Shown here: positions 3,782 through 64,000 of the stretch, one piece after another | How positions within the stretch are numbered: position 1 is the first letter of the stretch | Layout: every line of letters starts with the position of its first letter | From: Shigella phage TB004 | DNA: 64,000 nt | Reading direction: 5' to 3' (one strand) | Sequence record: MW822011 | Notes under the pieces: generated by a model | Told to the model about the DNA's origin: nothing | Seen by the model: the letters and a program-made list of their open reading frames with translations, nothing else | The model's database searches: none | Made by a program: the position numbers and the translations under genes

Positions 3782-3815
3782 CCCTATCAAAACAAATGAG
3801 TGATTGGAGAATAAA

Positions 3816-4088
3816 ATGAAAACATTTAAAGAATTTATCAATGAAGCTACTTTTAACGAAAAAGTAAAAATTAGTAAAGCTGTCAAGACTTTGATTGCTG
3901 ACATCAATTACCTATATGATATTGATTTAACTGACTATGTAACAGTTGGTAACAAACGTAACTTTTTCGTGTTTGACATCTCTGAACTTGACCAGAATCA
4001 AATTAACAACATTGAGCGTTTTGCTAATGATAAGGGTCTTCGTCATGAGTCAGCGGGTTATAAAAAATACGCAATTTATTTAAAATGA
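3816..4088 (+). CDS. ipI: internal protein I (capsid-targeted, IPI-like)
   Basis: N-terminal capsid targeting sequence MKTFKEFINE; locus after 57B. Confidence 0.7.
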   Translation: MKTFKEFINEATFNEKVKISKAVKTLIADINYLYDIDLTDYVTVGNKRNFFVFDISELDQNQINNIERFANDKGLRHESAGYKKYAIYLK

Positions 4089-4119: not shown

Positions 4120-4148
4120 ATCTCATCAAAATTAATTAGGAAAATAAA

Positions 4149-4457
4149 ATGAAAACATTTAAAGAATTTATCAATGAAGCGGCTGCGCCAAAGACATTCG
4201 TTATTAATACTCAGGCGAGTCTTGATGATGAATACGCGGAGGCAATTCTGAAGTCACTTGCTAAGAACGGTGTTGAAGTAATTGCTTCGGACTTTAAGAA
4301 AGGGGCTTCCGAGATGTTTATTTCTATAACTAAAGGATCTAAAGCTAAGATTAAATCATCATTCGGAGTTGCTCGTACCGATCAAATCGACAATCATGAC
4401 TTTAAACAAACTGGTGCTAAACGGCAGAATACAATTGCATCACGCGGAATAAAATAG
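4149..4457 (+). CDS. second capsid-targeted internal-protein-like ORF
   Basis: 102 aa starting MKTFKEFINEA (CTS); own promoter. Confidence 0.6.
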   Translation: MKTFKEFINEAAAPKTFVINTQASLDDEYAEAILKSLAKNGVEVIASDFKKGASEMFISITKGSKAKIKSSFGVARTDQIDNHDFKQTGAKRQNTIASRGIK

Positions 4458-5482: not shown

Positions 5483-5555
5483 TGGGAATTAGCCAAGTTG
5501 GTAAGGCACTGGATTTTGATTCCAGGATGCAAAGGTTCGAGTCCTTTATTCCCAG
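5483..5555 (+). tRNA. tRNA-Gln (anticodon UUG)
   Basis: cloverleaf; acceptor tgggaat/attccca; anticodon loop ttTTGat; GGTTCGAGTCC T-arm. Confidence 0.8.
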
Positions 5556-5556
5556 C

Positions 5557-5643
5557 GCGAGAATGGTCAAATTGGTAAAGGCACAGCACTTAAAATGCTG
5601 CGGAATGATTTCCTTGTGGGTTCGAGTCCCACTTCTCGCACCA
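5557..5643 (+). tRNA. tRNA-Leu (anticodon UAA)
   Basis: type II tRNA with long variable arm; loop cTTAAaa; ends CCA. Confidence 0.8.
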
Positions 5644-5648
5644 AATTT

Positions 5649-5722
<74 letters not shown>

Positions 5723-5732
5723 ATTTAATTTA

Positions 5733-5806
5733 CTCCGTGTAGCTCAGTTTGGTAGAGCGTCTGCTTTGGGAGCAGAATGTCGCAGGTTCAAATCCTGCCG
5801 CGGAGA
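5733..5806 (+). tRNA. tRNA-Pro (anticodon UGG)
   Basis: acceptor ctccgtg/cgcggag; loop ttTGGga. Confidence 0.8.
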
Positions 5807-5808
5807 CT

Positions 5809-5898
5809 GGAGGCGTGGCAGAGTGGTTTAATGCACCGGTCTTGAAAACCGGCAGTCGCTCCGGCGACTCATAGGTTCAAATCCTATCGCCTCCGCCA
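5809..5898 (+). tRNA. tRNA-Ser (anticodon UGA)
   Basis: type II tRNA; acceptor ggaggcg/cgcctcc; loop ctTGAaa; CCA encoded. Confidence 0.8.
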
Positions 5899-5903
5899 GT
5901 TTT

Positions 5904-5976
5904 GCTGATTTAGCTCAGTAGGTAGAGCAACTCACTTGTAATGAGAAGGTCGGCGGTTCGATTCCGTCAATCAGCA
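5904..5976 (+). tRNA. tRNA-Thr (anticodon UGU)
   Basis: acceptor gctgatt/aatcagc; loop ctTGTaa; CCA encoded. Confidence 0.8.
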
Positions 5977-5977
5977 C

Positions 5978-6055
5978 CAAGGCCCTGTAGCTGGAAGGTT
6001 CAAGCAAGCGACTCATAATCGCCAGATGGTGGTTCAATTCCACCCAGGGCCACCA
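5978..6055 (+). tRNA. tRNA with CAU anticodon (Ile, lysidine type, or Met)
   Basis: acceptor ggccctg/cagggcc; loop ctCATaa; CCA encoded. Confidence 0.7.
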
Positions 6056-6068
6056 AATTAAGAATTAA

Positions 6069-6155
6069 GGGGAGTTATCCCGTAGAGGTAGCGGTGTGGA
6101 CTGTAAATCCATTGTCATTGCGACTCGGGTGGTTCGACTCCATCACTCCCCACCA
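6069..6155 (+). tRNA. tRNA-Tyr (anticodon GUA)
   Basis: type II cloverleaf; acceptor ggggagt/actcccc; loop ctGTAaa; variable arm resembles E. coli tRNA-Tyr; CCA encoded. Confidence 0.65.
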
Positions 6156-6159
6156 ATTT

Positions 6160-6234
6160 GGATGTGTAGCTCAGTGGTAGAGCAGTTGACTGTTAATCAA
6201 TTGGTCCATGGTTCGAATCCATGCATGTCCGCCA
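6160..6234 (+). tRNA. tRNA-Asn (anticodon GUU)
   Basis: acceptor ggatgtg/catgtcc with two G-U pairs; loop ctGTTaa; T-arm GGTTCGAATCC; CCA encoded. Confidence 0.6.
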
Positions 6235-6359
6235 AATTTGTGACAACTGTCACATTAATATCTACTTGACGCGATTATAGGGTTGAACTGATCACTCTTC
6301 TCTTAATTTCGTGTGAAGACATCTTGATTGTTGGAGTAGGTATTAATGTGAACTAATTA

Positions 6360-6436
6360 CGGGGTGTAACTCAATTGTATAGAGTAGCGGTCCTCTAAAC
6401 CGCAGGTTAAAGGTTAGAATCCTTTCACCCTGGCCA
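6360..6436 (+). tRNA. tRNA-Arg (anticodon UCU)
   Basis: acceptor cggggtg/caccctg; loop ccTCTaa; CCA encoded. Confidence 0.75.
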
Positions 6437-8004: not shown

Positions 8005-8030
8005 AAGCCCCTTCCTATGGTTGGGGCTTT
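8005..8030 (+). terminator. terminator-like hairpin
   Basis: AAGCCCC-TTCCTATGGTT-GGGGCTT hairpin, weak T tract. Confidence 0.4.
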
Positions 8031-8063: not shown

Positions 8064-8092
8064 TTGTTTACTTCTCCTTGAGGTATGATACT
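8064..8092 (+). promoter_or_regulatory. early promoter
   Basis: GTTTAC, 17-nt spacer, TACTAT; upstream A/T-rich TTTCACAAAG element. Confidence 0.5.
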
Positions 8093-8124
8093 ATAGACCT
8101 ATCAAAACAAATGAGGAAAACATT

Positions 8125-12405: not shown

Positions 12406-12476
12406 AGTTGTTTACTTTCTCCTAAAACTGTGATAGTATATTCACAGTTACTAATTAAAATATTTAAAGGAAACAC

Positions 12477-13044
12477 ATGAAAACCTATAAAGAATTTATC
12501 GCTGGAAAAGGCCAAAGGCATTAATAAAGATGAGTGGACTTACCGAGGAAACGGCTTTGACCCTAAAACAGCCCCTATTGAACGATACTTAGCTACAAAA
12601 GCTTCCGACTTTAAAGCTTTCGCTTGGGAAGGACTTCGCTGGCGTACCGATCTAAATATTGAAGTTGATGGGCTTAAATTTGGCCATATTCAAGATGTTG
12701 TTGCTAGTAACTTGGATGCAGCTTTTGTTAAAGCTGACGGTGACCTTCGTCGCTGGAATTTAAAACTATTCTCTAAACAGAAAGGCCCGGTGTTTGTGCC
12801 TAAAGCTGGTAAATGGGTTATTGATAATAAATTAGCTAAGGCTGTCAACTACGCTGGTCTTGAATTCGCCAAGCATAAATCATCATGGAAAGGTCTTGAT
12901 GCAATGGCCTTCCGTAAAGAATTTGCTGATGTTATGGCTAAAGGCGGCTTTAAGGCAGAAATAGATACCTCTAAAGGTACGTTTAAAGACGCTAATGTTC
13001 AGTACGCTTACGCTGTTGCTAATGCAGCCCGTGGTAATTCTTAA
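12477..13044 (+). pseudogene. ipIII: internal protein III gene, frameshifted after the capsid targeting sequence
   Basis: MKTYKEFIA then stop after 15 codons; remainder of IPIII-like sequence open in +1 frame; one extra G near 12504. Confidence 0.55.
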
Positions 13045-13152
13045 TAAAGCCGAGTTCGAACCCGGTAATAGATAAATATAGAAACAGACAATTCGCACGC
13101 ATGAATTGTCCCAAACTTAAAGAATAAAACTATTTACATTTAAAGGAAACAC

Positions 13153-13455
13153 ATGAAAACATATCAAGAATTTATTACTGAAGCGCGAGTGAGTGCAGGT
13201 AAATTAGAAGCCGCTATAAATAAAAAGGCCCATTCATTTCACGATTTGTCCGATAAAGACCGTAAGAAACTTGTAAGCCTTTATATTGACAAAGAGCGTA
13301 TTCTCGCTCTTCCTGGCGCTAATGAAGGTAAACAGGCCAAGCCTTTGAATGCTGTCGAAAAGAAAATTGATAACTTTGCTTCTAAATTCGGTATGTCTAT
13401 GGATGACCTTCAGCAAGCGGCTATCGAAGCAGCTAAAGTAATTAAAGGTAAATAA
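13153..13455 (+). CDS. ipII: internal protein II
   Basis: 100 aa with CTS MKTYQEFITE; matches recalled T4 IPII. Confidence 0.8.
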   Translation: MKTYQEFITEARVSAGKLEAAINKKAHSFHDLSDKDRKKLVSLYIDKERILALPGANEGKQAKPLNAVEKKIDNFASKFGMSMDDLQQAAIEAAKVIKGK

Positions 13456-18520: not shown

Positions 18521-19102
18521 ATGGCTAGTTTAATTTTTACTTATGCAGCAATGAATGCTGGAAAATCTGCTTCTCTTTTGACTGCTGCACATAATTATAA
18601 AGAACGCGGAATGAGTGTATTAGTTCTTAAGCCTGCTATTGATACTCGCGATTCTGTTTGTGAAGTCGTTTCTCGCATTGGAATTAAACAGGAAGCGAAT
18701 ATTATTACGGATGATATGGATATTTTTGAGTTCTATAAATGGGCTGAAGCACAAAAAGATATTCATTGTGTATTTGTAGATGAAGCCCAGTTTTTAAAAA
18801 CTGAACAAGTGCATCAATTAAGTCGAATTGTTGATACATATAATGTTCCTGTTATGGCTTATGGTCTAAGGACTGATTTCGCTGGAAAATTATTTGAAGG
18901 TTCTAAAGAACTTTTGGCGATTGCAGATAAACTTATTGAACTAAAGGCAGTTTGTCATTGCGGTAAAAAAGCGATTATGACGGCTCGATTAATGGAAGAT
19001 GGAACACCAGTTAAAGAAGGTAATCAAATCTGTATTGGTGATGAAATTTATGTTTCTTTGTGCAGAAAACATTGGAATGAATTAACTAAAAAGCTCGGTT
19101 AG
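18521..19102 (+). CDS. tk: thymidine kinase
   Basis: 193 aa, P-loop AAMNAGKSAS, C-terminal Cys cluster; matches T4 Tk. Confidence 0.92.
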   Translation: MASLIFTYAAMNAGKSASLLTAAHNYKERGMSVLVLKPAIDTRDSVCEVVSRIGIKQEANIITDDMDIFEFYKWAEAQKDIHCVFVDEAQFLKTEQVHQLSRIVDTYNVPVMAYGLRTDFAGKLFEGSKELLAIADKLIELKAVCHCGKKAIMTARLMEDGTPVKEGNQICIGDEIYVSLCRKHWNELTKKLG

Positions 19103-19369: not shown

Positions 19370-19663
19370 ATGGACTTAAAAGCAACGGCATTATTCGCCA
19401 TGCTAGGATTGTCATTTGTTTTATCTCCATCGATTGAAGCGAATGTCGATCCTCATTTTGATAAATTTATGGAATCTGGTATTAGGCACGTTTATACACT
19501 TTTTGAAAATAAAAGCGTAGAATCGTCTGAACAATTCTATAGTTTTATGAGAACGACCTATAAAAATGACCCGTGCTCTTCTGATTTTGAATGTATAGAG
19601 CGAGGCGCGGAGATGGCACAATCATACGCTAGAATTATGAACATTAAATTGGAGACTGAATGA
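19370..19663 (+). CDS. rI: lysis inhibition regulator RI
   Basis: 97 aa with N-terminal signal-anchor; matches recalled T4 RI. Confidence 0.8.
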   Translation: MDLKATALFAMLGLSFVLSPSIEANVDPHFDKFMESGIRHVYTLFENKSVESSEQFYSFMRTTYKNDPCSSDFECIERGAEMAQSYARIMNIKLETE

Positions 19664-20046
19664 AATTCAGCGACTTTTCACAAAGTGGAAAACCTTCAAA
19701 GGCAGATGAATACTTAGGTTTATTAATGGCTGCACAAGCTTATTTTCATTCTGCGCATTTTGAAACTAAAAGTTATGCTAGACACAAAGCATACGATTTT
19801 ATTTTTTCCGAGTTGCCAGATTTGATTGATAAATTTGGCGAGCAATATTTGGGGTATTCTGGTAGAAAATACACACCTTCAATTCCAGATGCCAGTAAAC
19901 TTCCTACCGACACAATTAAAATGATTGATCGCATATTAGACCAATCTAACAGCATTTACAAAGAAATGCCTCCAGCCATTCAAAGCACGATAGATGATAT
20001 TACTGGAATGTTTTACCAGAGTAAGTATCTTCTTTCCCTCGAATAA
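19660..20046 (+). CDS. hypothetical protein (rI.-1 position)
   Basis: 128 aa. Confidence 0.55.
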   Translation: MKFSDFSQSGKPSKADEYLGLLMAAQAYFHSAHFETKSYARHKAYDFIFSELPDLIDKFGEQYLGYSGRKYTPSIPDASKLPTDTIKMIDRILDQSNSIYKEMPPAIQSTIDDITGMFYQSKYLLSLE

Positions 20047-20207
20047 CATTAGTCTCCTTCGGGAGTCCTTTTTTCATTTTGCCAGTTTACTTTCCAAAAT
20101 GAGTATGGTATAATAAAACTATCTTATAGATCGGGAGTCCTTTTTTCATTTTGCCAGTTTACTTTCCAAAATGAGTATGGTATAATAAAACTATCTTATA
20201 GAGGAGA
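20047..20207. repeat. terminator hairpin plus tandemly duplicated 72-bp early-promoter cassette
   Basis: unit TCGGGAGTCCTTTTTTCATTTTGCCAGTTTAC...TATAAT... at 20059-20130 and 20131-20202; identical copy at 63929-64000. Confidence 0.8.
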
Positions 20208-20212
20208 ACATC

Positions 20213-20401
20213 ATGAAAATTGAAGCACTTAATCAAGAAGGAAATATCTACGTTATCATTAATGGTGATTTTTTCGTCGACATGGATGAAGTTACTAGTG
20301 AAGAACTTGTAGAACTTCTTAAGAAACGTTATGATATGTGTGATGAAGCTGCAACTCATATGGCGTGTGCAATATTCTCTCTTTCATATGTGGTGGAATA
20401 A
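20213..20401 (+). CDS. hypothetical small protein
   Basis: 62 aa, GAGGAG RBS. Confidence 0.45.
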
Positions 20402-33107: not shown

Positions 33108-33581
33108 ATGTTATTGACTGGCAAATTATACAAAGAAGAAAAACAGAAATTTTATGATGCACAAAACGGTAAATGCTTAATTTGCCAACGAGAACTAAAT
33201 CCTGATGTTCAAGCTAATCACCTTGACCATGACCATGAATTAAATGGACCAAAAGCAGGAAAGGTACGTGGGTTGCTATGTAATCTCTGCAATGCTGCAG
33301 AAGGTCAAATGAAACATAAATTTAATCGTTCTGGCTTAAAGGGACAAGGTGTTGATTATCTTGAATGGTTAGAAAATTTACTTACTTATTTAAAATCCGA
33401 TTACACCCAAAATAATATTCACCCTAACTTTGTTGGAGATAAATCAAAGGAATTTTCTCGTTTAGGAAAAGAGGAAATGATGGCTGAGATGCTTCAAAGA
33501 GGATTTGAATATAATGAATTTGACACTAAAACACAATTAATAGCTTCATTTAAGAAGCAGCTTAGAAAGAGTTTAAAATGA
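33108..33581 (+). CDS. 49: endonuclease VII (Holliday junction resolvase) gp49
   Basis: 157 aa, Cys/His zinc motif CLIC...HLDHDH...CNLCN; matches T4 Endo VII. Confidence 0.9.
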   Translation: MLLTGKLYKEEKQKFYDAQNGKCLICQRELNPDVQANHLDHDHELNGPKAGKVRGLLCNLCNAAEGQMKHKFNRSGLKGQGVDYLEWLENLLTYLKSDYTQNNIHPNFVGDKSKEFSRLGKEEMMAEMLQRGFEYNEFDTKTQLIASFKKQLRKSLK

Positions 33582-35395
33582 CAATTGAAAAAGAAATTGA
33601 AGGATTGATTCATAAAACTAATAAAGACCTTTTAAACGAGAATGCTAATAAAGATTCTCGTGTTTTTCCAACTCAACGGGACCTTATGGCTGGTATTGTG
33701 TCTAAGCACATTGCCAAAAATATGGTCCCGTCTTTTATTATGAAAGCACATGAAAGCGGAATCATTCACGTGCATGATATTGATTATTCTCCTGCTCTTC
33801 CGTTTACTAATTGCTGTTTAGTAGATTTAAAAGGAATGCTTGAAAACGGATTTAAATTAGGCAATGCACAGATTGAAACTCCTAAATCAATCGGTGTTGC
33901 TACTGCAATTATGGCACAAATTACTGCACAGGTTGCTTCCCATCAATACGGCGGAACGACTTTTGCGAATGTAGACAAAGTACTTTCTCCTTATGTTAAA
34001 CGCACCTATGCAAAACATATTGAAGATGCAGAAAAATGGCAAATCGCTGATGCGTTGAATTATGCCCAATCTAAAACAGAAAAAGACGTATACGATGCGT
34101 TCCAAGCTTATGAATATGAAGTAAATACTCTCTTTAGTTCAAACGGACAAACTCCTTTTGTAACAATTACATTTGGTACGGGAACTGACTGGACTGAACG
34201 AATGATTCAGAAAGCAATTCTGAAAAATCGCATTAAAGGTCTTGGCCGCGACGGGATAACTCCTATTTTCCCTAAACTTGTTATGTTTGTTGAAGAAGGT
34301 GTTAATCTTTATAAAGACGATCCGAACTATGATATTAAGCAGCTTGCTCTAGAGTGTGCAAGCAAAAGAATGTATCCTGATATTATTTCAGCTAAGAACA
34401 ATAAAGCTATCACCGGTTCATCTATTCCTGTTTCTCCAATGGGTTGCCGTAGTTTCTTGAGCGTATGGAAAGATTCGACTGGTAATGAAATTCTTGATGG
34501 ACGTAATAATCTTGGCGTTGTAACACTGAATCTTCCTCGTATTGCATTAGATTCTTATATTGGAACACAGTTCAATGAACAGAAATTTGCCGAATTGTTC
34601 AATGAACGAATGGATTTGTGTTTTGAAGCATTGATGTGTAGAATTAGTTCATTAAAAGGAGTTAAATCTACTGTTGCTCCTATTCTTTACCAAGAAGGTG
34701 CATTCGGGGTTCGTCTTAAACCCGATGATGATATAATTGAGTTATTTAAAAACGGTAGAAGTTCAGTATCCCTAGGATACATTGGTATTCACGAATTGAA
34801 TATTCTTGTCGGTCGTGATATTGGTCAGGAAATTTTAACTAAAATGAATGCACATCTTAAGCAGTGGACTGAAAGAACTGGTTTTGCTTTTAGCTTGTAT
34901 TCTACACCTGCTGAAAACCTGTGTTATCGCTTCTGTAAACTCGATACCGAAAAATATGGAAGTGTAAAGGATGTTACTGATAAAGGCTGGTACACTAACA
35001 GTTTCCATGTTTCAGTAGAAGAAAATATCACTCCGTTTGAAAAGATTTCTCGCGAAGCGCCATATCATTTCATTGCGACAGGTGGTCACATTTCTTATGT
35101 TGAACTTCCTGATATGAAAAATAACCTAAAGGGTCTTGAGGCTGTATGGGATTATGCTGCACAACATTTAGATTATTTTGGTGTTAATATGCCAGTAGAT
35201 AAATGTTTTACATGTGGAAGTACCCATGAAATGACTCCTACTGAAAACGGATTTGTTTGTTCTATTTGTGGAGAAACTGATCCTAAAAAGATGAACACAA
35301 TAAGAAGAACATGCGGATATTTGGGAAACCCGAACGAACGCGGATTTAATCTTGGTAAAAATAAAGAAATCATGCATAGGGTTAAACACCAATGA
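33578..35395 (+). CDS. nrdD: anaerobic ribonucleotide reductase NrdD (uninterrupted)
   Basis: 605 aa; C-terminal glycyl radical motif RRTCGYLGNP; no intron break. Confidence 0.9.
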   Translation: MTIEKEIEGLIHKTNKDLLNENANKDSRVFPTQRDLMAGIVSKHIAKNMVPSFIMKAHESGIIHVHDIDYSPALPFTNCCLVDLKGMLENGFKLGNAQIETPKSIGVATAIMAQITAQVASHQYGGTTFANVDKVLSPYVKRTYAKHIEDAEKWQIADALNYAQSKTEKDVYDAFQAYEYEVNTLFSSNGQTPFVTITFGTGTDWTERMIQKAILKNRIKGLGRDGITPIFPKLVMFVEEGVNLYKDDPNYDIKQLALECASKRMYPDIISAKNNKAITGSSIPVSPMGCRSFLSVWKDSTGNEILDGRNNLGVVTLNLPRIALDSYIGTQFNEQKFAELFNERMDLCFEALMCRISSLKGVKSTVAPILYQEGAFGVRLKPDDDIIELFKNGRSSVSLGYIGIHELNILVGRDIGQEILTKMNAHLKQWTERTGFAFSLYSTPAENLCYRFCKLDTEKYGSVKDVTDKGWYTNSFHVSVEENITPFEKISREAPYHFIATGGHISYVELPDMKNNLKGLEAVWDYAAQHLDYFGVNMPVDKCFTCGSTHEMTPTENGFVCSICGETDPKKMNTIRRTCGYLGNPNERGFNLGKNKEIMHRVKHQ

Positions 35396-36231
35396 ATTAC
35401 GATAGATTTTATCCCTGTGATTTTGTGAATGATAAATTAACTTTAATATTTGAAGAAAATAATGATTTATTATTGTCATATGTTGATTTGATAATAAAAA
35501 ATTATAATAATCCTAAAATAAAGGGGAAAACGGAAGCACATCACGTGCTTCCCAAATCTATATTTCCTGAATATAAAACAGATAAATGGAATATTGTTAA
35601 TTTGTCATATTATGACCATGCATTGGCTCATTACTATTTAGCTAAAACAAGTAATAGTAAAATGTGTTATGCCTTTCATAGAATGATAAACTCGAATACT
35701 GATAGATTTAATACTGATGAATTGGATGAAATTTTTAAATTGTATTCCAAAGAAAGGGAATTATTTCACCGCTCTATGTCAAAATTATCGAAAAATATAT
35801 GGAAAGATGACGATTTTAGAAAAAGACATAGCGAACTAACTAAGTTAGCAATGCAAAAACCTGAAGTTAGAAATAAAACTTTATTAAATTTGTCAAATGC
35901 AATGAAAACTGATAAAGTTAGAAATAAAATTTCAAGGCTAACTAAGTTAGCAATGCAAAAACCTGAAGTAAAAGAAAAACATAGAAATTCATTAAAGCTG
36001 GCGTATGCAAATCCTGAGGTTATGAAAAGGAAACATCAGCGTCTTCGAGAAAAATATACTCTTAATTTATTTGGCGCATATAAAGATGGTGTTCTTTTAA
36101 AAACATTTAATTATATACCAGACGCAGCAAAATATTTTAATATTTCTAGCAAAGGAAATATTTTAAAATGTTTAAATGGCGAACGTAAAAGTGTTGAAGG
36201 CTATAATTGGAAATATATAAATGAATTATGA
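35392..36231 (+). mobile_element. HNH homing endonuclease gene between nrdD and nrdG
   Basis: HNH motif EAHHVLP...N...HALAH, repeated KLAMQKPEV (NUMOD3-like), C-terminal GYNWKY; start resembles nrdG start. Confidence 0.7.
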
Positions 36232-36691
36232 CAGAATATATCCGTGTTGCTTTGTTAATGGTCCTGGGTGCCGAACTGTTCTTTTCGTTACGGGGTGTTT
36301 GCATAAATGTGAAGGATGTTATAATAAATCAACATGGAATGCTAGAAATGGCGTTCCATTCACTGGTGAAACACTGGAACAATTAATTGAATGTTTGAAT
36401 AATGATTATATAGAAGGATTAACTATAACTGGAGGAGACCCTCTCTATCCTGATAACCGAGATGTTATTCATTGCATCGTTCAAACAGTAAAAAATCTTT
36501 ATCCCAATAAAAGCATTTGGTTGTGGACAGGATACAAGTTTGAAGATATTAAACAACTAGAAATGCTTAAATATGTTGATGTTATTATTGATGGGAAGTA
36601 TGAGAAAAATCTTCCGACCAAAAAGCTGTGGCGAGGTTCAGATAATCAGCGACTTTGGTCAAATACCGATGGGGTGTGGAAACATGATTAA
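36221..36691 (+). CDS. nrdG: anaerobic RNR activating enzyme NrdG
   Basis: 156 aa, radical-SAM C-x3-C-x2-C (CLHKCEGC). Confidence 0.88.
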   Translation: MNYDRIYPCCFVNGPGCRTVLFVTGCLHKCEGCYNKSTWNARNGVPFTGETLEQLIECLNNDYIEGLTITGGDPLYPDNRDVIHCIVQTVKNLYPNKSIWLWTGYKFEDIKQLEMLKYVDVIIDGKYEKNLPTKKLWRGSDNQRLWSNTDGVWKHD

Positions 36692-59564: not shown

Positions 59565-60175
59565 TGCTCTATCAAATGCACAAGTGCAAAGATACATACA
59601 AATATAAAGGTGCCCAGTGTTATATCATTAATCGTGAAAACGCGGGTCCAGGTCATTCACATCAATCACGGTTTGTATTCGTTAAAAACAATGAAATTAT
59701 AGCAGTTGCTAATTACATGCTTGTGACTAATGATGTTAATCCAGTGCCTTTTACATATTATAATCTAATGGATTTGGCGTACGATTATAATTGGTTTAAT
59801 CATGATACTTTGGCTCATATTGAAGGCGTAGGATTTGACATCTCTTATTCTAGTTACTCGTTGTGTCCTATGAGCCGAGCTCATAAAGAGCCTGAATATT
59901 TTTCATTTCGTCGGCGCGTAGACTTTAAACGCAGCACAGAGTATGTCGGTGGAATCTTTGTTAAAGATAATCGAATTACTCGCATTATTTATCCTTTGGG
60001 CTGTGGTCAAAAAGATATTGATGTTGATTTAGACTTTACTGAAAACATCATTAATCATATTGCTTCTGTGTATTTTGATATTGATCACAAAATTGTAATA
60101 TGTGGATATGAATTACCATCAGAAAAACAGTCTATTGATGACCAAATTTTTAATGCTTTTATGAATAGAGGTTAA
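59564..60175 (+). CDS. hypothetical protein (61.2 position)
   Basis: 203 aa. Confidence 0.5.
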   Translation: MLYQMHKCKDTYKYKGAQCYIINRENAGPGHSHQSRFVFVKNNEIIAVANYMLVTNDVNPVPFTYYNLMDLAYDYNWFNHDTLAHIEGVGFDISYSSYSLCPMSRAHKEPEYFSFRRRVDFKRSTEYVGGIFVKDNRITRIIYPLGCGQKDIDVDLDFTENIINHIASVYFDIDHKIVICGYELPSEKQSIDDQIFNAFMNRG

Positions 60176-60176
60176 T

Positions 60177-60341
60177 ATGAAAACATATAAAGAATTTATT
60201 AAAGAAGATATGGTCGCTGGAGATTCAGGTGGTAATCCTGAAAATATCTCCACTGGAACAACGTCAGGCGCTGTAGTAAATAAAGGTCCTGAACAGATTC
60301 CTAAAAAGAAAAAAGAGGAATCTAAAGAAAAAGAAGAGTAA
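60177..60341 (+). CDS. small capsid-targeted peptide (CTS-bearing)
   Basis: 54 aa starting MKTYKEFIKE, same CTS as internal proteins; GAGG RBS; Lys/Glu-rich tail. Confidence 0.45.
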   Translation: MKTYKEFIKEDMVAGDSGGNPENISTGTTSGAVVNKGPEQIPKKKKEESKEKEE

Positions 60342-63666: not shown

Positions 63667-63912
63667 ATGGCTAGTACTCGCGGTTATGTTAATATTAAAA
63701 CATTTGAGCAGAAATTAGATGGAAATAAGAAAATTGAAGGAAAAGAAATTTCTGTAGCTTTCCCTCTTTATTCTGACGTTCACAAAATTTCTGGTGCTCA
63801 TTACCAGATATTCCCTTCAGAAAAAGCAGCATATACTACTGTATACGAAGAAAATCAACGTGATGCATGGATTGCTGCAAACGAAGATCTGTGGAAAGTA
63901 ACTGGTGGTTAA
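63667..63912 (+). CDS. soc: small outer capsid protein Soc
   Basis: 81 aa MASTRGYVNIKTFEQKLDG..., matches T4 Soc. Confidence 0.9.
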   Translation: MASTRGYVNIKTFEQKLDGNKKIEGKEISVAFPLYSDVHKISGAHYQIFPSEKAAYTTVYEENQRDAWIAANEDLWKVTGG

Positions 63913-63920
63913 TAATTCAA

Positions 63921-64000
63921 GGACTCCTTCGGGAGTCCTTTTTTCATTTTGCCAGTTTACTTTCCAAAATGAGTATGGTATAATAAAACTATCTTATAGA
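63921..64000. repeat. terminator hairpin plus early-promoter cassette, third copy of 20059-20130 unit
   Basis: GGACTCC-TTCG-GGAGTCC hairpin, T6, then identical 72-bp promoter unit ending at window edge. Confidence 0.8.

Follow-up and report, generated by a model that had tools for sequence, protein, structure and literature searches.

A soc-type early promoter cassette at the rI.-1/mobD.5 locus of a T-even Shigella phage and its probably artefactual tandem copy

Hairpins with C(UUCG)G tetraloops were reportedly found in the intercistronic regions of T4 (Tuerk et al., 1988). Cassettes of the promoter-early stem-loop (PeSL) class have also been described for T4-type phages (Arbiol et al. 2010, PMC2839356; Comeau et al. 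2014, PMC4122927). A PeSL of T4 or PST is defined as a stem-loop followed by a promoter of the form TTTACW N17 TAYWAT and then by a Shine-Dalgarno (SD) sequence and an ATG (PMC4122927). The published cases concern nearby PeSLs, with the intervening ORFs inserted, deleted or swapped and with mini-circle intermediates (PMC2839356, PMC4122927). Sanger sequencing has exposed internal repeats of ~79 bp in phage genomes assembled from short reads as artefacts (PMC10438801). The locus described here touches on each of these systems. It has the PeSL layout of terminator stem-loop, A/T-rich stretch, sigma70-like early promoter, SD and ATG; like the published PeSLs it lies between small non-essential ORFs, and it appears to be a chimera with crossovers inside the hairpin core and the SD.

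The window, by which we mean the whole stretch of 64,000 nucleotides of Shigella phage TB004 (MW822011) that was analysed, has 95–97% nucleotide identity to hundreds of deposited genomes and 100% identity to none. Judged by its sequence, it is that of a T-even phage (Tequatrovirus). Its + strand is the direction of early transcription, and the T4/PST consensus TTTACW N16-18 TAYWAT has 18 matches on the + strand and 0 on the − strand of the whole window. According to the ORF list and to synteny with T4, T2 and C40, the gene order around the tandem site is tk, rI.1, rI, rI.-1, mobD.5 (Table 1). The mobD.5 protein is identical in many T-even genomes by exact-protein look-up. We named the gap between rI.-1 and mobD.5 the R locus and the gap between soc and mrh.2 the S locus. 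Ten tRNA genes are located at 5483-6433 (+), one of them barely over the Rfam threshold at 30.2 bits; T4 has 8 and PST 9 (PMC4122927, Table 1). The Rfam scan of the window returned the tRNA cluster only, with no match at the cassette.

Table 1. Positions in the window of the genes and cassette elements at the R and S loci, with the basis of each assignment.
Feature	Position	Strand	Basis
tk	18521-19102		
rI	19370-19663		
rI.-1, 128 aa, DUF5856, 5′ of the R-locus cassette	19660-20046	+	ORF list; T4/T2/C40 synteny and annotation; Pfam on identical genes
Chimeric hairpin	20052-20068	+	Diagnostic alignment columns; folding
Two-locus repeat, first 77-mer; soc-type early promoter	20054-20130	+	Identity to 63924-64000; graph simulation; promoter scan
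soc-type promoter, first unit	−35 20086-20091; −10 20109-20114	+	
Second 72-nt unit, presumed untrimmed overlap opening contig B	20131-20202	+	Tandem Repeats Finder (TRF); K=77 simulation; relatives single-cassette
Promoter, second unit	−35 20158-20163; −10 20181-20186	+	
Right crossover zone AGAGGAGA, Shine-Dalgarno GGAG, mobD.5 ATG	20197-20215	+	Diagnostic alignment columns
mobD.5, 62 aa, predicted first gene driven by the R-locus cassette	20213-20401	+	ORF list; T2/T4 annotation
soc, small outer capsid protein, 81 aa, 5′ of the donor cassette	63667-63912	+	Sequence; exact-match look-up; Pfam Soc on relatives
soc terminator, perfect C(UUCG)G hairpin, then T-run	63919-63940	+	Folding; annotated elsewhere
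Donor (native) cassette, homologue of T4 early promoter 14.95 before mrh.2	63924-64000	+	Repeat comparison; relatives

A first-pass annotation had taken the repeated unit for a terminator/early-promoter cassette. This identification is borne out by the T4 record M30001, where the S cassette is annotated as 'early promoter 14.95' before mrh.2, and by the terminators annotated on it in G50, G28, G9062 and Ge15 (rho-independent in some records). In the phage collection the S cassette occurs in 388 records at 388 places, always single and always after soc. The native R cassette of the relatives is a paralogue, 66–70% identical to S from the hairpin to the ATG. It consists of the perfect hairpin AGTCTCC-TTCG-GGAGACT, a T-run and the promoter GTTTACTTTCC..TGAGCTGTG(G/A)TACTAT, and it contains GGAGAC..TGAGCTGTGGTACTAT.

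By their layout, both the R and the S cassettes fit the published definition of the PeSL type. An early promoter GTTTAC...TATAAT had been placed in both tandem units; the promoter scan recovered its hexamers there, TTTACT and TATAAT separated by 17 nt and with TG ahead of the −10, and they stand in all three copies. An SD with start codon is found at R as GGAGAACATCATG (mobD.5, 20203-20215) and for the S copy as GGAGATCACTATG (mrh.2), the latter read in relatives. The stem-loop is complete in the S copy and in the native R cassettes of the relatives, partial in the first R copy of the window and absent from the second. Recombination between cassettes, a further mark of PeSLs, is represented by an R-to-S switch at the hairpin core and an S-to-R switch at the SD.

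Elsewhere in the window, an early-promoter match with a strong upstream hairpin (GCCCCTTCCTATGGTTGGGGC, −11.8 kcal/mol) at 8007-8027 and 8067-8094 is the only other such site and may be a second complete PeSL-like cassette; most of the remaining promoter matches are without a convincing stem-loop. Repeated SD-plus-ORF starts (GGAGAATAAAATGAAAACATTTAAAGAATTTAT..) were seen at 3806-3847, 4139-4180, 12467-12508, 13143-13184 and 60167-60208, the first two being 98% identical, and indicate a putative paralogous family of small early ORFs. At 3806 and at 4139 the copy directly follows an early-promoter consensus site. A 279-aa ORF at 35392-36231 (+), between nrdD (33578-35395) and an nrdG-like ORF (36221-36691), starts with MNYDRFYPCDFVN, a near copy of the N-terminus of the following ORF (MNYDRIYPCCFVN), and repeats of 51 nt lie within it at 35836-35983 (LTKLAMQKPEV.. 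motif). This ORF has the appearance of a homing-endonuclease-type insertion that copied the beginning of the gene it targeted.

As for the tandem itself, the two 72-nt units that the first-pass annotation had placed at 20059-20130 and 20131-20202 (+) are present in the given sequence, exact to the base: they stand back to back and are identical at 72/72 positions by direct string comparison. TRF reported 20059-20202 with a period of 72, 2.0 copies, 100% matches and a score of 288. The identical unit with a perfect hairpin, said to close the window at 63929-64000 after soc and 43.8 kb away, was seen as well. The second tandem unit equals the last 72 bases of the window, and a repeat search with string comparison found 20054-20130 and 63924-64000, ~43.8 kb apart, to be identical at 77/77 nt. 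The other early-promoter look-alikes of the window reached merely 60–91% identity over 34–60 nt in the repeat search, and the cassette repeats are therefore far above chance. At the junction 20130/20131 the sequence reads TATAGA/TCGGGAG, with a microhomology of 0 bases; the flanks compared are CTCCT with ATAGA and TCGGG with GGAGA.

Alignment of the R locus of the window with the native cassettes revealed a change of type at both edges. The diagnostic columns turn from R to S between columns 29 and 42 and back to R between columns 109 and 117. R-type sequence extends through the hairpin's 5′ arm; S-type sequence takes over at the 3′ arm and reaches to the end of the 5′-UTR, and from GGAGAACATCATG the locus is R-type again. 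Both switch points, the 12-nt hairpin core CTCCTTCGGGAG and AGAGGAGA at the ribosome-binding site, are common to R and S. Among the matches listed for the R locus in the phage collection, 60/60 span 260 nt, compared with 331 nt in the window, and all 15 relatives read directly carry one native R cassette. On copy number in related genomes, then, a single cassette per R locus was the rule in both sets, and the tandem state was seen in none.

We infer a recombination mechanism behind this pattern. The S cassette would have been copied by ectopic homologous recombination (gene conversion) onto its R paralogue 43.8 kb upstream, the converted tract extending from the hairpin core CTCCTTCGGGAG to AGAGGAGA at the ribosome-binding site. 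The two loci would as a result share a perfect direct repeat of 82 nt, 77 nt of it observed and the rest presumed. The event would leave rI.-1 with a mismatched, chimeric terminator and would place mobD.5 and the genes downstream under a copy of the promoter that follows soc, with the −10 TATAAT instead of TACTAT. Within the reachable data, the conversion appears to be unique to this genome among ~500 relatives (388–510 records). Neither junction was found in any other genome, the phage collection of ~500 included, which leaves the conversion with no second witness. The chimeric-hairpin junction had no match in IMG/VR, JGI metagenome contigs or GTDB genome contigs, and the right-hand junction none in GTDB genomes or IMG/VR. 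These database negatives are weak because T-even phages are sparse there; as a positive control, the native soc hairpin was found in 4 IMG/VR contigs only, and negatives from that source weigh little.

The predicted foldings differ between the loci. The soc hairpin, a perfect stem of 9 bp capped by a UUCG loop and followed by TTTTTT, folds at −15.1 kcal/mol (z = −4.7; 0/200 shuffles as stable). The arms of the first R copy, GTCTCC (5′) and GGAGTCC (3′), leave a T.T mismatch; this hairpin is predicted to fold at −5.7 kcal/mol (z = −0.6) and was not picked up by the terminator scan. The native R hairpin of the relatives is predicted at −10.8 kcal/mol. By the alignment, the hairpin of the first R copy is a chimera, with a 5′ arm of the native rI.-1 type and a TTCG loop and 3′ arm of the soc type. 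The R-type/S-type switches at both edges would explain the mismatched, weakened hairpin by conversion. The UUCG hairpin terminator that had been described before the first unit is thus confirmed as a hairpin, but given its mismatch, predicted energy and scan result not as a good terminator. The second unit starts within the hairpin loop; it is without the 5′ arm and hence forms no hairpin.

The edges of the tandem copy were compared with those expected from an assembly join. A de Bruijn graph was simulated on a genome with one cassette per locus at 11 K values (33–127), assuming that the post-soc bases beyond the window are GGAGA and then T/G, as in W143, T4 and ERR775480. Under that assumption the R and S loci share exactly 82 nt. 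At K=77 the paths merge in a vertex that covers 20054-20130 in R and 63924-64000 in S, and the diverging vertex starts at 20059, the equivalent of 20131. Only K=77 of the 11 values yielded the boundaries 20130, 20131 and 64000 together. An overlap at K = 33, 55, 71, 73, 75, 79 or 81 misplaced the vertices, and at K ≥ 83 there was no break. With 150-nt reads, the usual largest K of SPAdes is 77. The sole other graph junction at K=33 was a 38-nt exact repeat, 3810-3847/4143-4180.

An 82-nt repeat, being longer than K=77, would cause a de Bruijn assembler to break the circular genome, giving two contigs. Contig A would end on the first 77-mer of the repeat (..TATAGA, 20130). Contig B would open with the last 77-mer (TCGGGAG.., 20131), run for 43,870 nt and stop on the first 77-mer (64000). 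If the two were joined end to end with the overlap untrimmed, 77+77−82 = 72 nt would be duplicated. The record would then be a two-contig join, opening with TCGGGAGTCC...TATAGAGGAGA(T/G)..ATG (mrh.2) and closing at window position 64000; this position would be the end of the source record, as the model needs. The observations agree with such a join: at a single standard K, the duplicate is bounded by the K-mers that open and close a repeat exceeding K in length, the units are exactly identical, and the junction is without microhomology. The short homology at the end points that would mark genuine slippage or unequal exchange is absent (0 bases).

We consider the tandem copy to be very probably an assembly-join artefact, as judged from geometry and not from reads, because one K (77) fits three boundaries to the base and a real duplication explains none of them; a real tandem duplication would, as a caveat, give an identical window sequence. 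The tandem junction TATCTTATAGATCGGGAGTCC had no match in IMG/VR or JGI metagenome contigs, where T-even phages are sparse. The first-pass annotation had presented the tandem duplication as a real feature unless the copies should prove to be an assembly artefact, and the K=77 geometry points to just such an artefact. It had also placed two stacked promoters before the ORF at 20213 (mobD.5); the junction and the window end fall on K=77 vertex boundaries, and there is probably one promoter, not two.

The 72-nt unit may instead have been doubled in the phage itself, either at the time of the conversion or later. Replication slippage, re-invasion out of register in synthesis-dependent strand annealing, or the integration of a PeSL circle carrying the cassette alone could have doubled it, and two identical strong early promoters would then stand in series before mobD.5. 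The duplicate does stand in the sequence as given, its left breakpoint within the hairpin loop would be a plausible breakage site, and PeSL-PeSL recombination, chimeric PeSLs and the copying of promoter boxes by 'recombinational slippage' are known in T4-type phages (PMC2839356, PMC4122927). However, slippage and unequal exchange normally require some microhomology and the junction has zero, a real event gives no cause for 20130, 20131 and 64000 all to match K=77 vertices, and the tandem copy occurs in 0 of the relatives examined. A 72-bp DNA circle is, moreover, too small for ready formation. We therefore hold a doubling in the phage to be unlikely. An unequal crossover between the GGAG of the hairpin arm and that of the SD, the one evident short homology, was tried as a specific origin of the tandem and rejected: it predicts the junction TATAGAGGAGTCC, and the one observed is TATAGATCGGGAGTCC. 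A broader version takes both events as real and the PE14.95 cassette as a small mobile element that moved 43.8 kb, overwrote its paralogue and then doubled, for example through a cassette-only intermediate. This is decidedly unlikely; if it held, two identical strong early promoters with no terminator between them would precede the mobD.5-mobD block and form an unstable, expandable array.

Conversely, the soc-type R cassette might be an assembly error along with the tandem copy, the phage having kept its native R cassette and the assembler having wrongly threaded the soc cassette into the locus. This would fit with the R locus clearly having at least one assembly problem and with the conversion junctions appearing in no other genome (phage collection of ~500, IMG/VR, JGI metagenome and GTDB contigs). 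Against it, a mis-assembled conversion is unlikely because native R and S share exact runs of 12–16 nt only, far under the usual K and too short for a graph crossing. The K=77 break at both loci, for its part, needs a true shared 77-mer in the reads. The R flanks also join S-type sequence directly, TTAGT running into CTCCTTCGGGAGTCC.. and ..TATAGAGGAGA into ACATCATG, and each 77-mer across these joins must be read-derived. Errors at both levels are accordingly very improbable. Convergence of early promoters and C(UUCG)G terminators on one consensus, independently and with no copying, could draw on the 66–70% identity that native R and S already have in every T-even genome examined, and on the 60–91% likeness over 34–60 nt of the other early promoters in the window. 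Yet the two loci are identical at 77/77 nt (82 presumed), even at spacer and 5′-UTR positions where R and S are distinct in all relatives; the type switches abruptly at both edges, and every examined relative keeps native R. On this pattern of diagnostic columns convergence was rejected in practice, and we regard it as next to impossible. What is likely, taking both parts together, is a real conversion of a single cassette to which the join of two contigs added an artefactual tandem copy.

If a single cassette was converted and the tandem copy arose in the join, the deposited genome probably needs a 72-nt correction, and its ends warrant an equal check: with the artefact model right, the record also carries a 72-nt direct repeat between its two ends. 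The tandem copy should be treated with caution and not be cited in favour of stacked promoters, amplified promoters or PeSLs in tandem. About 50 bp of homology is said to be sufficient for T4 recombination. For the 82-nt two-locus repeat, the earlier suggestion that long identical repeats serve as substrates of recombination is reasonable. The viable outcome, however, is likely to be gene conversion only, because a crossover would be expected to delete or duplicate 43.8 kb including the DNA polymerase and essential replication genes. Further conversion between the 82-nt copies would likely keep them identical. With the rI.-1 terminator weakened and the promoter swapped, more read-through from tk-rI and altered early expression of the mobD.5 block may be expected.

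The cassette itself is familiar from T4 and belongs to an established class, the PeSL; the conversion adds a new example of a process already described. T4 PE 14.95 (M30001) is the orthologue of 63924-64000, with the same position between soc and mrh.2, 91% identity over 80 nt and an identical hairpin, −35 and −10. In contrast to T4 and every relative examined, the genome studied here has a second, 100% identical copy before mobD.5, where the others have the −10 TACTAT. Native R and S are alike typical of the T4 C(UUCG)G hairpins, with G+C stems, C(UUCG)G closure and then a T-run, whereas the R hairpin of the window, presumably a recombinant, contains a T.T mismatch and is predicted to be roughly half as stable. 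The untrimmed contig overlaps known from other assemblies are likewise exact duplicates with edges at the first and last K-mers, and K=77 follows here from the lengths; unlike in plain K-length joins, the duplicate measures 72 nt, since the contigs flank the edge of an 82-nt repeat (77+77−82). With regard to the published PeSLs, the two cassettes here lie 43.8 kb apart, the cassette alone was replaced, no ORF changed and no mini-circle is implied. On the alignment evidence, the event at the R locus is a non-crossover conversion and not modular shuffling, a natural replacement of a paralogue by a PeSL ~44 kb away with gene content unchanged. It supports the published idea of PeSLs as portable homology and would extend it from local ORF shuffling to long-range conversion.
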